DNA from: Escherichia phage AnnaReinhart_Bas75
Direction: 5' to 3' (one strand)
DNA: 43,870 nt
Sequence record: PQ850596.1
Part shown: positions 8,190-41,398 of the stretch, piece after piece
Position numbering within the stretch: the stretch's first letter is position 1
How the letters are laid out: every line of letters starts with the position of its first letter
Program-made: the position numbers and the translations under genes
Notes under the pieces: generated by a model
What the model saw: the letters and a program-made list of their open reading frames with translations, nothing else
Told to the model about the DNA's origin: nothing
The model's database searches: none

Positions 8190-8540
8190 ATGGTTGATGT
8201 AATCAAACGTCGTATTACTGGTGTTTCTGATGATTCTCCTGCCGATGGTCAGGTTGAAATCGATATGGCGAATATCTCGCCCGCATCTTTTTCTACCGCA
8301 CTTGCCGCTACCACTACCAAGTCTACGGGGCAGACGATGACTCTTACCGTAGCCGTAACTGGCGGTCTGGCCCCGTACACATACCAGTGGTACAAAGATA
8401 ACAACGCTATCCCAGGCGCTACCGCCGCCACCTACGAGAAAACTTCGCTCGCTACTACCGATTCCGGTACGTATAAAGTGGTTGTCCACGATGTATATGG
8501 TAATATTATCTCCAGCAGCACCGTAGCAACTGTATCTTAA
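8190..8540 (+). CDS. Ig-like domain protein (possible capsid decoration protein)
   Basis: 116 aa; motif MTLTVAVTGGLAPYTYQWYKDNNAI...GTYKVVVHD matches Ig-like domain signature and parallels 4417..4878. Confidence 0.55.
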   Translation: MVDVIKRRITGVSDDSPADGQVEIDMANISPASFSTALAATTTKSTGQTMTLTVAVTGGLAPYTYQWYKDNNAIPGATAATYEKTSLATTDSGTYKVVVHDVYGNIISSSTVATVS

Positions 8541-8545
8541 TACCG

Positions 8546-8561
8546 CGGCCCTTCGGGGCCG
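8546..8561 (+). other. stable hairpin CGGCCC-ttcg-GGGCCG (no T-tract)
   Basis: Perfect 6-bp GC stem with UUCG tetraloop directly after the stop of 8190..8540. Confidence 0.5.
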
Positions 8562-8576
8562 TAATAAGGAAAGGTC

Positions 8577-8756
8577 ATGGCAGATAATTATGTAATCCGC
8601 GAAAAGTACACCCACGTTGATGTTGTTGACGGTCAGGTTATGCCCGTTCGCGGTGTTGTAGAAGCGGATGAACTGGTAGCGGTTCAACCGGACAACGAAG
8701 AAGCGCACAACAACGGCGGTGGCACTAAGCGTCGCCGCCGTAAGTCAGAGGAATAA
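8577..8756 (+). CDS. hypothetical protein (59 aa; below the ORF-track size cutoff)
   Basis: ATG preceded by AAGGAAAGG; clean ORF ending just before the next gene; basic C-terminus GGGTKRRRRK. Confidence 0.45.
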   Translation: MADNYVIREKYTHVDVVDGQVMPVRGVVEADELVAVQPDNEEAHNNGGGTKRRRRKSEE

Positions 8757-8759
8757 TTT

Positions 8760-9272
8760 ATGCCGCTAATCGTGGAAACTGGGGCAATCGTCCCGAATGC
8801 CGACAGTTACATTAGTCTGGCTGACGCCCGCGCGTTAGCGGCTAATTATGGCCTTGAGCTACCGGAAGACGATACCGCCGCGGAGGTGGCCTTGCGTAAC
8901 GGCGCCACTTATGTCGGGCTTGCGGAACCGCAGATGTGCGGTCGCCGGGTATCCGCCGAACAGTCTCTGGCGTACCCACGTACGGGAACAACACTGAACG
9001 GCTTCACTGTAGCGGATAATGATATTCCGTCGCAGTTAATCCGGGCGCAGGTAATCGCCGCTGTTACATATGGCGCAGGAACTGATGTTCGGGCTAACTC
9101 TGATGGGCGTTCCGTGCAGACTGAGCGCGTAGAAGGCGCGGTGACCGTGACATACTTCAACAACGGCAACAGTGGCGCTACGACCGCGATTACCGCTGCT
9201 GACGACGCTTTACGCCCGTTATTGTGTGGCGGTCTTAACAATGGTTTCTCGTTTAACGTGTACCGGGGTTAA
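8760..9272 (+). CDS. putative head-tail connector/adaptor protein
   Basis: 170 aa, in the head-completion position; N-terminus (IVPNADSYISLADARALA) resembles gp6-like adaptor proteins. Assignment is tentative. Confidence 0.45.
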   Translation: MPLIVETGAIVPNADSYISLADARALAANYGLELPEDDTAAEVALRNGATYVGLAEPQMCGRRVSAEQSLAYPRTGTTLNGFTVADNDIPSQLIRAQVIAAVTYGAGTDVRANSDGRSVQTERVEGAVTVTYFNNGNSGATTAITAADDALRPLLCGGLNNGFSFNVYRG

Positions 9273-36703: not shown

Positions 36704-36733
36704 TTGAAAGTTCTTGACACATGTTTGTATAAT
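36704..36733 (+). promoter_or_regulatory. candidate sigma70 promoter TTGAAA-N18-TATAAT
   Basis: Good -35/-10 with 18-bp spacer; no protein-coding gene follows for about 350 bp. Confidence 0.4.
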
Positions 36734-36932: not shown

Positions 36933-36955
36933 GGGCAGGCTTAAGCCTGCCCTTT
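36933..36955 (+). terminator. hairpin GGGCAGGC-ttaa-GCCTGCCC followed by TTTAGTT
   Basis: Perfect 8-bp stem, plus-strand orientation, in a non-coding region. Confidence 0.5.
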
Positions 36956-37894: not shown

Positions 37895-38089
37895 ATGGGT
37901 AAGTGGATTAAGTGTAGTGAGCGGATGCCGGGTGACTTTGAAGATGTCCTGGTTTCGGATGGGGGTAACGTCGAGGTGATGTGGTGGGACTGCGACGGTT
38001 TCTGGGATTGTTGGGCGCCGCGCAACTCAAACATCGATATAGACGATGTGACTCACTGGATGCCGTTACCTGAGCCGCCAGAAGTGTGA
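37895..38089 (+). CDS. DUF551-like small protein
   Basis: 64 aa; Trp/Cys/Asp-rich with WIKCSERMP ... HWMPLPEPP pattern resembling DUF551 as I recall it. Confidence 0.45.
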   Translation: MGKWIKCSERMPGDFEDVLVSDGGNVEVMWWDCDGFWDCWAPRNSNIDIDDVTHWMPLPEPPEV

Positions 38090-38232
38090 TGTTATATTGT
38101 AACAATAGTTTGGGATTTTACTGAGTGACTTACGCTGCTACACAGCAGCGTACAACTTTAGATTAGTGTCGTCAAAAAGCGACACTTTCACCAAACGCAA
38201 CAATCGAAGTGACTATTGCAGGAGACGCAACA

Positions 38233-38400
38233 ATGATTACTAAAGAACAAGCGCAATCATTATATGATGCGATTATCGCAGTTGCAGAGGCACACGCGGA
38301 CTACGCAACAGCGGATTACTATAGTGTTGACGACGCTGGGGGTAGGAAACGCGAGGCCGAGACAAATTTATGGGATGTGTTGCAGAGGATGACCTCGTAA
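38233..38400 (+). CDS. hypothetical early protein (55 aa)
   Basis: AGGAGA RBS before ATG 38233. Confidence 0.45.
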   Translation: MITKEQAQSLYDAIIAVAEAHADYATADYYSVDDAGGRKREAETNLWDVLQRMTS

Positions 38401-38440
38401 CCTGTCCCGTGGTGACAATACAAACACCAATAAAATTTAC

Positions 38441-38469
38441 TTGCACACTAAGATAGAATAGGCTACTAT
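38441..38469 (+). promoter_or_regulatory. sigma70-like promoter TTGCAC-N17-TACTAT with AATAG-N4-CTATT palindrome
   Basis: TTGCAC actaagatagaataggc TACTAT; followed by ACAAACGAGAGGAG leader and ATG 38501. Confidence 0.6.
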
Positions 38470-38500
38470 TCATTTACACAAACGAGAGGAGAGACGGAAG

Positions 38501-38650
38501 ATGGTTACTTTGATGGTTATGGAATTCGAAAACAGCGTAGCAACTTACCGCGAGATGACTATGGCGCAGGCGTATCACCTGGCCTCAAACGGCAACTTCT
38601 ACAAGGCGCAAATCATCAATGAGTTCGGGGTAATTGACTATGAATTTTAA
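38501..38650 (+). CDS. hypothetical early protein (49 aa; unlisted)
   Basis: GAGGAGAGACGGAAG RBS region then ATG; overlaps start of next gene. Confidence 0.4.
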   Translation: MVTLMVMEFENSVATYREMTMAQAYHLASNGNFYKAQIINEFGVIDYEF

Positions 38651-38912
38651 CAGTTACACCGTGACCGTTGATTTTGAGGGGCTGGAGTTGCCCCTCCCCA
38701 ACAACTACAGATATATAACACGTGACCGTTTCGGTTTTATCCAGGGGTGGCGGAACAAACCAACAGACACTGAGTTCGGGATGTCAGGAGGAGAAGAGTT
38801 GCCGATCACTTTCGGGCATCAGAGTAGTAATGAAAAACTTAAAACTGTGATTCGTAAGTATCGACGCCGTGGTAATACCGGGCTTATAGCGATAACCGGC
38901 GCTGTTGAGTAA
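38640..38912 (+). CDS. hypothetical early protein (90 aa)
   Basis: ATG 38640 overlapping upstream stop. Confidence 0.5.
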   Translation: MNFNSYTVTVDFEGLELPLPNNYRYITRDRFGFIQGWRNKPTDTEFGMSGGEELPITFGHQSSNEKLKTVIRKYRRRGNTGLIAITGAVE

Positions 38913-38931
38913 ACGGGAGGAGAGACAGAAG

Positions 38932-39618
38932 ATGAGTAACAAAAACGAAGTATTCGAGTACCTGATTGACCAACTACGTCAGCAGGTAAATAACAACCAG
39001 TGCGAAGACCTGGCGCATGAGGTGCAGTCACTTAAGAATCAGTTACGTGATGCGTCGGCGCTGGTGGCGGAGTTGCAGGAAGACAACATTAAGAAATCTG
39101 AGCACATATCGCACCTGTCGGAACTGGTGGACGAGTTGATGGGGACTATAACGTTAATGAACGGGGACGTTGAGGCTTACAAAGTTCTACGCAAATGTGC
39201 GTGCGCCTATGGGCAATCCGGTTGTCGCGACGACGCCGCTCATATCGAGAAATCGTGGATTGAGCACGCTGGCGCCGCATGCCCTGTACCGGACGATACT
39301 GTTGTTGATATTAAATTCCGAAACGGCAAAATGGAAAGTAATACCAAAGCGCTATGGTGGAGTTGGGGCCTAAATGGCGGACCATACGAAATTGTTGCGT
39401 ACCGTGTTGCCGCGCAACAATGCAATAAGGACGATACTCGTGAGTGCGCGCATGATTGGGTGCTGGACGAAAAAGGGGACTACTTCATTTGCGCTAAATT
39501 CGGTAAGCAAGAAGCTGACTTAATTGATTGCCGACACACTAATACCGTCGGTTTGCGTAAGGGCTTTGCGCCGGGGTTTACTAAAAAGTGTCTGGATTGC
39601 GGGGCTAAACTGAAATGA
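38932..39618 (+). CDS. hypothetical protein with N-terminal coiled coil and C-terminal Cys-rich domain
   Basis: 228 aa from ATG 38932 (GGGAGGAGAGACAGAAG RBS); about 12 Cys in C-terminal half (CACAYGQSGC ... CPVPD ... CLDCG). Confidence 0.55.
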   Translation: MSNKNEVFEYLIDQLRQQVNNNQCEDLAHEVQSLKNQLRDASALVAELQEDNIKKSEHISHLSELVDELMGTITLMNGDVEAYKVLRKCACAYGQSGCRDDAAHIEKSWIEHAGAACPVPDDTVVDIKFRNGKMESNTKALWWSWGLNGGPYEIVAYRVAAQQCNKDDTRECAHDWVLDEKGDYFICAKFGKQEADLIDCRHTNTVGLRKGFAPGFTKKCLDCGAKLK

Positions 39619-39818
39619 CCAGCATCCTCTTTATCTGGGTACTGTCCGCAGGCCAGATGCAACTGGCGGCAGCAGAAACGTTTTATTCGATGGAGGCGTG
39701 CCAGTCAGCGGCACGCGCCGCAGAGAACGCGCACTTCCTGTTTCAGGGCGACAAGCCAAACGATTCAGAGGTACGCGCTATCTGCTCACCTAAGCGACTT
39801 GGTAAACAGGAGAAATAA
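39615..39818 (+). CDS. small secreted protein (67 aa) with signal peptide
   Basis: N-terminus MTSILFIWVLSAGQMQLAAA resembles a Sec signal peptide; two Cys in mature part. Confidence 0.45.
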   Translation: MTSILFIWVLSAGQMQLAAAETFYSMEACQSAARAAENAHFLFQGDKPNDSEVRAICSPKRLGKQEK

Positions 39819-39819
39819 C

Positions 39820-40005
39820 ATGGTACAGAGATACGATGTATGGTGCATAGAAGATATTTTTAAGAATAGCCACGACGGTAGCTATGTTAAATACGAAGAC
39901 TACGCGAAACTCGAAGCCGAGTTGCAGAAATACAAGGACCAGTTTCCTGATTACGTTGAGTGCGCGAACTGTGGGTCAGTTACACATGTGGAGGGGGTGG
40001 AGTGA
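39820..40005 (+). CDS. hypothetical protein (61 aa), CxxC pair at C-terminus
   Basis: CAGGAGA RBS; ECANCGS motif. Confidence 0.45.
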   Translation: MVQRYDVWCIEDIFKNSHDGSYVKYEDYAKLEAELQKYKDQFPDYVECANCGSVTHVEGVE

Positions 40006-40286
40006 TGTCTCTTGCAACTGACATCCTGAAACGAAGCGGCCTTGCGCCGCTGTCACCGAAAGTTAAGACGCGAGCACGTAACGCAACTTACAAGGAACTG
40101 GCAGAACGGCGTAAAGCTATCCGCGCCTGTGGATTCCAGAACGGGAAGGCCGTTAACCTCGGTGAGTTTAAAACACAGGAACGCGCGGCAATCGCTAATC
40201 GGTTATTTAATTACTGGAAATCGCTGGGATACGAGGATATTCCGACGAAACCACAGAGACGACAGTACATCTGGAGACACAAATAA
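40005..40286 (+). CDS. hypothetical protein (93 aa)
   Basis: ATG overlaps previous stop; GAGGGGGTGGAG RBS. Confidence 0.5.
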   Translation: MSLATDILKRSGLAPLSPKVKTRARNATYKELAERRKAIRACGFQNGKAVNLGEFKTQERAAIANRLFNYWKSLGYEDIPTKPQRRQYIWRHK

Positions 40287-40361
40287 ACCGTTATTAAGAT
40301 AATTCCTACCCGTGGTATCCTCCAGTTACTGCATACTTAATACGCACCTGGAGGATTCATC

Positions 40362-40670
40362 TTGGATAAATTTACTGAAACAGTGACTGGGTGGCTTCTG
40401 GCAGCCGCACTAGCTGGTGGGGTAATCGGACTACGACAACATAAGTCCGCTATTTCCGGCCCTATCGACGGCTTCTGCTTTATTGCAACTGGCTTCACTT
40501 GCGCCGTATTTGGCGCACCTCTCGCAGCTCAATGGTTTGGAATCACGGGCGACCGTGAAATCGCAGGCCTGGGCTTCATTATCGCTATTCTCTGGATGCC
40601 TATCTATTCCCGTCTGTCCGGTATCGTCGCCGGAGAATACATCGCACGTCGAGGAGGCCCGGATGAATGA
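40362..40670 (+). CDS. holin (three predicted transmembrane segments)
   Basis: 102 aa; three hydrophobic stretches and charged C-terminus; CTGGAGGA RBS; immediately upstream of endolysin. Confidence 0.6.
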   Translation: MDKFTETVTGWLLAAALAGGVIGLRQHKSAISGPIDGFCFIATGFTCAVFGAPLAAQWFGITGDREIAGLGFIIAILWMPIYSRLSGIVAGEYIARRGGPDE

Positions 40671-40935
40671 GTTATTCTGGTTCTGCGGTATGCTGGCAAT
40701 CGGAGGCACATCGCTGTTTAATGTGTATCATCCCAGCGTTGACGACGGGCTATTTGGCCGGGTGCTCTATATCCTGACTGCTATTGTCTGCGCCGCAGGA
40801 TGTATCCACCTGTTACAGGGCAGCATGTCTCCGACGCTGCCTGAGACATTAATCACATTAGTTGCGCTGCGCCAGATTCGTCAGGCGTGGCTGTCATACG
40901 GAGGACATAAGCGTGTCTCGAAATATTTCAGATAA
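40663..40935 (+). CDS. second lysis-associated membrane protein (two TMDs; holin or antiholin candidate)
   Basis: 90 aa from ATG 40663 (GGAGG RBS); two hydrophobic segments; overlaps both neighbours. Confidence 0.45.
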   Translation: MNELFWFCGMLAIGGTSLFNVYHPSVDDGLFGRVLYILTAIVCAAGCIHLLQGSMSPTLPETLITLVALRQIRQAWLSYGGHKRVSKYFR

Positions 40936-41398
40936 TGGATTGCATTTCACCGCTGCGTTCGAGGGATTCCGCGGAACTGCATACCGCGCTACGCCGAACG
41001 AGAAGTACCTGACTATCGGGTACGGGCACTATGGGCCGGACGTAACCCCGGGTAAGACCATCACACCGGGGCAAGGCCTCCTGTTACTGAATCGTGATAT
41101 GGCTAAGGCCGTAGCTGCGGTTGACGCAGCAGCACACCATTCATTGACACAGGCACAGTTCGATGCAGTGTGCGACCTGGTATACAACGCAGGTGCTGGT
41201 GTGATTGCAGCTGCTACCGGCACAGGAAAGGCGCTGCGTTCTGGTGACATCGCGACACTGCGGGCTAAACTGGCGCTGTTTATCAACCAGAACGGCAAAC
41301 CGTTACTTGGTCTGCGCCGCCGTACTGCCGGGCGTCTTGCACTGTTTGACGGCAAGCCGTGGCAGGAGGCGGAGGCCATTGGGAGGGCTGTTAAATGA
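40913..41398 (+). CDS. endolysin, phage lysozyme (GH24 / T4-lysozyme-like)
   Basis: 161 aa from GTG 40913 (GGAGGA RBS); N-terminal catalytic region FEGFRGTAYRATPNEKYLTIGYGH resembles the E...D...T lysozyme core. Confidence 0.75.
   Translation: MSRNISDNGLHFTAAFEGFRGTAYRATPNEKYLTIGYGHYGPDVTPGKTITPGQGLLLLNRDMAKAVAAVDAAAHHSLTQAQFDAVCDLVYNAGAGVIAAATGTGKALRSGDIATLRAKLALFINQNGKPLLGLRRRTAGRLALFDGKPWQEAEAIGRAVK

Follow-up and report, generated by a model that had tools for sequence, protein, structure and literature searches.

The gene at positions 38932 to 39618 (+ strand) of Escherichia phage AnnaReinhart_Bas75 (PQ850596.1; the whole analysed stretch of 43,870 nucleotides (nt) is called the window) encodes a modular protein of 228 amino acids (aa), in which a conserved N-terminal stalk is followed by small C-terminal modules that differ between related phages. 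The protein falls into a phage family that is known but has not been characterised, and the 43.9-kb window is a complete or nearly complete Kagunavirus-type siphophage genome (Guernseyvirinae). Because a conserved stalk carries small exchangeable modules, and these are recombined between near-identical phages, a role with variable partners is proposed. The explanation that we place first, tentatively and with a little less than half of our confidence, is that of a dimeric adaptor or inhibitor which binds host or competitor macromolecules by its displayed modules, in host takeover or counter-defence. An earlier sequence-only reading had described an early protein with a coiled-coil N-terminus and a Cys-rich C-terminal domain. 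The combinatorial architecture, the conserved linker junction, a large unnamed domain family, and a resemblance to T7 gp5.9 are new relative to that reading.

Family and domain architecture

The open reading frame (ORF) is a real gene with an ATG start, 228 codons and a stop, as had been read before, and 1022 homologues were found, none of them on a contig longer than about 46 kb. The start was set by homologues opening with MSNKNEVFEYLI. The protein matched PHROG 6094, a Guernseyvirinae-only family, over residues 1–115 (E = 4e-47), and its N-terminal part was found in 230 phage records, nearly all of them Salmonella or Escherichia Guernseyvirinae. Bas76_0065, Bas71_0065, the K1G orthologue, and gp20 of Salmonella phage wksl3 belong to this family and share with the window both the locus and the downstream partner gene; in the window, the gene stood in a rightward small-gene block 5' of the lysis cassette and was followed by a phrog_3766 gene. 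The window protein was the same as Bas76_0065 except for C190F, and the exact protein with F190 was absent from public assemblies.

Sequence searches of Pfam, NCBIfam, PADLOC, and the PDB with the protein and 67 family members returned coiled-coil noise only. PADLOC defence-protein models gave no real match (JetC and LmuB coiled-coil noise, E at least 0.02), and Foldseek with the full structure model against the PDB returned nothing with E below 3.6. Searches of Pfam, NCBIfam, and PADLOC found no enzymatic or membrane feature, and the protein sequence contained no transmembrane segment or signal peptide. An HNH or other nuclease was rejected, as the catalytic motif was absent and no match was obtained. 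The previous statement that no family is recognisable therefore stands for Pfam, NCBIfam, and the PDB, but not for PHROG, where family 6094 was joined by phrog_9174, phrog_26870, and phrog_16943 in the middle of the protein. The features of the gene, all on the + strand, were assigned as follows.

38915..38922, +: Shine-Dalgarno-like GGGAGGAG, 9 nt 5' of the ATG, read off the sequence
38932..39618, +: coding sequence, 228 aa and stop, Bas76_0065 orthologue ('hypothetical protein')
38932..38991, +: residues 1–20, N-terminal anchor helix MSNKNEVFEYLIDQLRQQ, near-invariant alignment columns, present in wksl3 gp20 and relatives
38998..39081, +: residues 23–50, conserved acidic coiled-coil segment QCEDLAHEVQSLKNQLRDASALVAELQE, borderline similarity to T7 gp5.9 residues 20–46
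39082..39195, +: residues 51–88, variable coiled-coil continuation; DNA homology to other Kagunaviruses stops at about 39083
39196..39243, +: residues 89–104, linker 1 CACAYGQSGCRDDAAH, low model confidence (pLDDT below 50, see below)
39244..39411, +: residues 105–160, Trp-rich beta domain, W..H.GAACPVP...V.I.FR.G...W.W....EIVAYRV
39412..39441, +: residues 161–170, linker 2 AQQCNKDDTR, related to the EQSGCRKEDTQ junction
39442..39510, +: residues 171–193, predicted knuckle 1 (C172, H174, C187, F190)
39511..39615, +: residues 194–228, predicted knuckle 2 (C200, H202, C220, C223), all four ligand positions present

The Shine-Dalgarno-like element agrees with the ribosome-binding site claimed earlier. 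AlphaFold2 (AF2), run on the 67-sequence family alignment, gave helices at residues 3–20, 24–78, and 80–91 with predicted local distance difference test (pLDDT) values of 76–94. One unbroken 3-4 heptad register extended over residues 27–83, with Val, Leu, or Ile at position a, mostly Leu at position d, and Asn52 at an a position, and the coiled-coil N-terminus of the sequence-only reading was thereby borne out. By the Harbury rules, such an a/d composition favours a parallel dimer, and the stalk is therefore most likely, as judged from its heptads, a parallel dimeric coiled coil. Residues 1–20 were the sole segment common to Kagunavirus and Jerseyvirus orthologues, the first ~18 residues being universal, and DNA homology to wksl3 was limited to 38930–38993. 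At residues 24–42, core and surface positions were both at least 90% conserved. This conservation of the surface alongside the core suggests that the stalk segment may itself be an interface that binds something, beyond a plain zipper.

In the full AF2 model, a confident small beta domain was observed at residues 107–162 (pLDDT 80–87), and the Trp-rich domain modelled alone reached a pLDDT of 85.5. It matched phrog_9174 (E = 1.3e-12), phrog_26870, and phrog_16943, and superposed on BFVD models with Foldseek E-values down to 1e-7 and template modelling (TM) scores of 0.8–0.9. An exhaustive profile search of cluster representatives collected 5822 members of this family (W-x2-W-x-GG-x-CPV ... DIVAYRV, ~55 aa), which in phages and prophages is often tandemly repeated and sometimes free-standing. 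Bcep781 gp63, BcepNY3 gp66, Skate gp11, and Pantoea AAM22 gp87 belong to the same family as residues 105–160; outside PHROG 6094 the domain occurs on its own, in tandem repeats, or in fusion with DUF6378, whereas the window copy is a divergent subtype (W-I-E-H-A-G-A-A-CPVP) in which GG and the second Trp are missing. Neither Pfam nor NCBIfam had a model for the domain, no relative with a solved structure was found, and its motif strings occurred in no paper. Among the phage domain families that Pfam and NCBIfam do not yet cover, it is one of the larger.

The C-terminal 140 residues had been taken as one Cys-rich domain, but they are divided into linker 1, the Trp-rich domain, linker 2, and two knuckle modules. 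Instead of about 12 Cys in CxxC-like spacing, 11 Cys (24, 89, 91, 98, 117, 164, 172, 187, 200, 220, and 223) and 7 His were counted in the protein, with one CxxC (C220/C223), one CxC (C89/C91), and two CxH (C172/H174 and C200/H202). Five Cys and two His were located in the knuckle motifs. The other six comprised C24 in the coil, C89, C91, C98, and C164 in the variable and junction linkers, and C117 in the CPV motif of the Trp-rich domain, and each of them was swapped for other residues in some relatives. Cys98 and Cys164 were rejected as ligands since Arg or Trp stood there in several homologues, the CPV Cys was rejected since its position was variable in the Trp-rich alignment, and a single metal cluster of 12 Cys was rejected since the Cys fall into separate modules and linkers. 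The metal-binding module suggested earlier remains plausible for residues 171–228, which are best read as two predicted CHCC zinc knuckles, but it does not take in the six other Cys, which lie in no recognisable site.

The evidence for the knuckles came mainly from the family. After the linker and the optional Trp-rich domain, homologues carried one to four copies of a mini-module of 19–30 residues with the pattern C-x-H-x-(W/F/Y)...C-x-x-C-G. Among 233 full-length family proteins, 366 knuckles in 31 sequence types were found, and a comparison of the 31 types showed nothing in common beyond the four ligand positions, the Gly after them, and the aromatic residue. The modules were gathered by a pattern that demands the ligands, so independent support has to come from the Gly, the aromatic residue, the excess over shuffled sequences, and ligand conservation in modules anchored otherwise. 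Gly followed the CxxC in 350 of 355 modules, although it was not part of the search pattern; family-wide, 355 modules were observed against 5.1 ± 2.2 in composition-preserving shuffles, and 69% of the tail Cys were module ligands. When modules were located by other residues, the ligands were conserved in 93–95 of 95 sequences. The window protein alone contained one full C-x-H...C-x-x-C match (shuffle P = 0.023).

Searched against the PDB, the module profile retrieved only phi-x-C-x-x-C-G knuckles of zinc proteins (C2H2 fingers, Zn-ribbon RNA-binding proteins, eL40, eS27, and GATA), and these matches are best taken as a common motif and not as homology. As in zinc-ribbon and zinc-knuckle modules, such as archaeal Zn-ribbon RNA-binding proteins, eL40, eS27, and the first knuckle of C2H2 fingers, two ligand pairs are separated by a short predicted beta-hairpin, and the second pair has the shared form phi-x-C-x-x-C-G. 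In contrast, the first pair is C-x-H and not C-x-x-C, no Pfam zinc-ribbon family was matched, and the PDB matches cover half of the module. AF2 placed short strands at residues 176–178 and 185–187, between the half-sites, within a region of low pLDDT (41–62 over residues 163–228). Knuckle 2 was basic with an isoelectric point (pI) of 9.0, whereas knuckle 1 and the Trp-rich domain were acidic or neutral.

Module shuffling in the family

Among the 233 full-length proteins there were 95 architectures, which differ in their knuckle types and in whether they carry the Trp-rich domain and any of three N-terminal inserts; members with the 'I2' or 'I2-W' architecture lacked knuckles altogether. The order was reversed in Jerseyvirus orthologues, of which wksl3 gp20 is an example, with the knuckle before the Trp-rich domain, and the Kagunavirus coil segment was replaced. 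The tail modules were each under purifying selection, yet they were combined differently in nearly identical phages.

The breakpoints were visible in the DNA. Homology to four Kagunaviruses, Bas70, fPoEco01, and Schulenburg among them, spanned the upstream gene and the first 125–150 nt of the target gene, broke at 39056–39083, and returned at 39598–39615 with the downstream gene, the flanks being 81–93% identical. The junction peptide EQSGC(R/C)KEDTQ was encoded by nearly the same DNA before different modules, and in linker 1 the C89/C91 part was variable while the 'QSGC' junction motif was conserved. The exact 26-nt linker sequence was present in 12 IMG/VR contigs of 41–44 kb, with at least six different modules after it in the 11 that were readable. 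Because conserved linker DNA precedes different modules, the pattern agrees with an exchange of cassettes through homologous recombination at the linker. An exonuclease and a Gp2.5-like annealing protein are encoded by the phage itself and could promote such an exchange. A diversity-generating retroelement was rejected, as the genome map contained no reverse transcriptase. In IMGVR_UViG_3300045988_013455, the family gene (at ~1758) had the conserved linker followed by another Cys-rich tail, VRLPVCRCVPAHCGTYHGNTIVCDNCGG, which lies outside the C-x-H...C-x-x-C pattern.

Tandem zinc-finger arrays of the PRDM9 type are likewise strings of small zinc modules that differ rapidly in number and identity from one close relative to the next, and PRDM9 was the top motif match of the module profile. 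The likeness is one of concept only: the predicted phage fold is not C2H2, the linkers are different, the modules belong to many sequence types without relation to each other instead of being variants of a single repeat, and no evidence of DNA reading was obtained.

Weighing the functional explanations

In the mechanism that we propose, the gene product would be an accessory cytoplasmic protein with a modular chain, probably without a core function. The N-terminal anchor helix would lead into a heptad-perfect acidic coiled coil serving as a parallel-dimer stalk, and this stalk would carry a C-terminal string of small, independently folding binding modules, namely a Trp-rich beta domain followed by two CHCC zinc knuckles, the second of which is basic. 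Related phages would keep the stalk and swap the C-terminal modules by recombination at the conserved linkers. The displayed modules may bind a macromolecule of the host or of a rival phage (protein or nucleic acid) multivalently, and the protein would then serve host takeover or counter-defence as an adaptor or inhibitor, with diversifying selection acting on it. The binding of nucleic acid or host proteins, to which the sequence-only reading had pointed, is a reasonable guess.

Should the modules indeed bind targets, the gene would be a natural case of combinatorial domain display by a small phage, in which recombination at a common linker generates the combinations. The diversification of host-interaction or counter-defence functions by phages could then be studied in a compact system, and the modules would supply zinc-stabilised binders of 19–30 residues. 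The BASEL phages Bas70–76 carry different alleles of the gene in otherwise similar genomes, which makes experiments feasible.

Several points weigh against this adaptor or inhibitor explanation. The family members are all annotated 'hypothetical'. The dimer is predicted from the heptads only and zinc binding from the motif, AF2 being unconfident over residues 163–228. The window allele has lost a ligand of knuckle 1, which shows that the phage from which the window sequence came, at least, can live without an intact array. Hypervariability is also expected of dispensable or selfish sequence. In addition, the sole temporal transcriptome of a Kagunavirus, the RNA-seq of K1B4, has the target gene unannotated (PMC12645636); the Glimmer annotation of vB_Eco_K1B4 shows a gap of ~400 nt (8400–8796) exactly where the family gene is expected (PMC12645636, table S2). 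A genome-reduction study had as its subject a Skatevirus, outside Guernseyvirinae.

The basic charge of knuckle 2 (pI 9.0) could instead indicate a sequence-specific nucleic-acid-binding regulator, in which a dimeric zipper places basic zinc knuckles on DNA or RNA and thereby controls phage or host expression. A dimer joined to a DNA-binding module is a common regulator design, phi-x-C-x-x-C-G knuckles are known in DNA- and RNA-binding proteins, and the small-gene block starts beside a divergent regulatory region. However, the DNA-binding part of a regulator should be conserved, and here the putative binding part is the most variable one, which weakens the regulator reading; unrelated modules are found in phages whose flanks are more than 90% identical. 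Moreover, knuckle 1 and the Trp-rich domain do not share the basic charge, members with the I2 and I2-W architectures would have no knuckle to place on a nucleic acid, and neither a helix-turn-helix nor a known DNA-binding family was detected in Pfam or NCBIfam searches. A regulator is thus unlikely, although we would still take it seriously.

The acidic coil led to a different proposal, that residues 24–50 are related to the DNA mimic gp5.9 of phage T7 and block RecBCD and/or other host complexes that bind DNA, such as MukBEF, while the modules add targets or help to evade guard systems. gp5.9 is a parallel coiled-coil dimer that mimics DNA and binds the RecB arm with its C-terminal coil (PMC9836394). 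The coil segment CEDLAHEVQSLKNQLRDASALVAELQE aligned with gp5.9 residues 20–46 with 14 identities over 28 residues, nine of them at surface positions (SLKNQL, VAEL). gp5.9 surfaced in each of two libraries independently, as PHROG 9014 'Gp5.9-like inhibitor of RecBCD' (E = 0.0077) and as PDB 8b1r_P, for which the E-value was 0.74 when the single sequence was searched and improved to 0.053 when the family profile was used. Pairwise hhalign gave a probability of 90% (P = 1.4e-6, 47% identity over 30 columns), and the Smith-Waterman score of 62 compared with 37 ± 6 in shuffles that preserve the heptad register (P = 0.0026).

Against this, the database-corrected E-values were all borderline and stood amid other coiled-coil noise matches. 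Of the acidic gp5.9 residues that contact RecB, six fall in the aligned part; only two of them were kept (D21 as E25 and E36 as D40), and four were lost (E24 to Ala, D38 to Ser, E39 to Ala, and E45 to Gln). The N-terminal beta-brace of gp5.9 had no counterpart, nor had D4, D11, and D15, which were unaligned, and the pI was 4.8 compared with 4.0 for gp5.9. A tblastn search with gp5.9 found no Kagunavirus, Jerseyvirus orthologues lacked the gp5.9-like segment, and a conserved host target alone would leave the hypervariable tail unexplained. gp5.9 (RecBCD and MukBEF inhibitor; PDB 8b1r and 9gmb) shares with the window protein an acidic heptad coil and a place in the non-structural gene set of a phage, but it is a free-standing protein of 52 aa with a beta-brace, whereas the window segment is internal (24–50) to a modular protein of 228 aa with a helical N-terminus. 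The resemblance is therefore a borderline lead and not a family membership, and a DNA mimic of this type appears improbable.

The borderline gp5.9 link nevertheless provides a testable idea for how Kagunaviruses handle RecBCD and for their variable sensitivity to Old. Kagunaviruses vary in this sensitivity (PMC11990801), and Old is triggered by RecBCD inhibitors (bioRxiv 10.64898/2026.07.10.737580); the latter preprint contains no Kagunavirus data. A bolder form of the idea is a 'hub' counter-defence factor, in which a gp5.9-like acidic DNA-mimic coil that blocks RecBCD-type nucleases is combined with shuffled target-binding modules, the linker DNA being the cassette-exchange site. We regard the hub as speculative and give it roughly one chance in ten; if it were true, each Guernseyvirinae lineage would put together a set of inhibitors of its own on a single stalk.

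The gene could also be dispensable mosaic filler, a recombination hot spot that gathers short cassettes without selected function, with the C190F allele decaying. The very high architectural turnover of the gene, the zinc ligand lost in the window allele, and neighbours that also come and go (~315 bp of Bas76 absent from the window, and a 45-aa ORF upstream in other phages) would suit this explanation. It is hard to reconcile with reading frames kept in more than 1000 members, with a ligand pattern kept over 31 module types, and with the occurrence of the gene across Kagunavirus and Jerseyvirus, and we consider it very improbable. An accessory factor that times or regulates lysis or aids assembly, as its conserved place ~750 bp 5' of holin-holin-endolysin and the overlap of its stop with the start of a 67-aa protein with a hydrophobic N-terminus might suggest, is hardly credible, as the protein has no transmembrane segment or signal peptide, PHROG spanin and virion matches were coiled-coil noise (E = 0.014–0.5), and four or five small genes lie between the target gene and the holin.

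The window allele and the surrounding genes

The C190F change was the sole nucleotide difference to Bas76 across the 687-nt ORF: codon 190 (39499–39501) is TTC (Phe) in the window and TGC (Cys) in Bas76, position 39500 being T in the former and G in the latter. The window allele thereby lacks the fourth ligand of knuckle 1, at a position where Cys was found in 95 of 95 homologues with the module. Because C190F removes this ligand, only one of the two predicted knuckles can be fully liganded in the window allele. The change may be genuine variation, or it may have arisen by mutation in the laboratory or by an error in sequencing. It is not anomalous in number, since local divergence was very low (five mismatches to Bas76 over ~3.2 kb at 36.8–39.9 kb), and is unusual by its place only.

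The region 38000–40500 was 97% identical to Escherichia phage VerenaMeyer_Bas76 and 88–93% identical to other Kagunaviruses, and genome-wide the identity to Bas76 was 88–99%, block by block. The structural genes lie on the + strand, and the replication and recombination genes follow on the − strand up to ~37 kb. About 14 small unknown genes on the + strand then lead into holin-holin-endolysin. The ORF at 38932..39618 belongs to this last block, which runs from ~37.1 kb to the holin at 40362, and is its largest gene, in agreement with what had been noted before. The neighbouring gene next in order was as follows.

39615..39818, +: 67-aa gene (phrog_3766), whose ATG overlaps the stop of the ORF at 38932..39618 (ATGA)

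This gene was kept next to the target in all loci inspected, from Kagunavirus to Jerseyvirus, as was the synteny with the lysis cassette, and it is possibly translationally coupled to the target gene. Its product has a hydrophobic, signal-peptide-like N-terminus, MTSILFIWVLSAGQMQLAAA, and two Cys. The following neighbour at 39820–40005 (61 aa, phrog_29624) ends with a CANCG knuckle and gave a weak match to the 'Lar-like restriction alleviation protein' phrog_3592 (E = 8.5e-4). A Lar-like zinc ribbon was rejected for the target protein, as this weak match belongs to the neighbour. DUF551 was rejected likewise, since it is a separate neighbouring ORF of 64 aa at 37895–38089 (phrog_924 and phrog_60), whose fPoEco01 orthologue is annotated as DUF551 superfamily.

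Gene content around the target differed between relatives. In Bas71, fPoEco01, and Schulenburg, an extra ORF of 39–45 aa (M.GYGSWTLGELVDAYEIMG...) stood between the upstream gene and the target, and it was absent from the window and from Bas76. Downstream, ~315 bp of Bas76 (Bas76_0068 and Bas76_0069) were absent from the window at 40005–40011, and from 40011 to 41398 the identity to Bas76 fell to 88%.

The best sigma-70-like site of the region was located at 36704–36733 (TTGAAA-18-TATAAT, 11/12), ~380 nt 5' of the first small gene on the + strand. Early expression of the ORF, as labelled in the sequence-only reading, is predicted from its gene position and this site only. A GC-rich palindromic hairpin at 36933–36952 comes after the sigma-70-like site, and both overlap small ORFs on the − strand.

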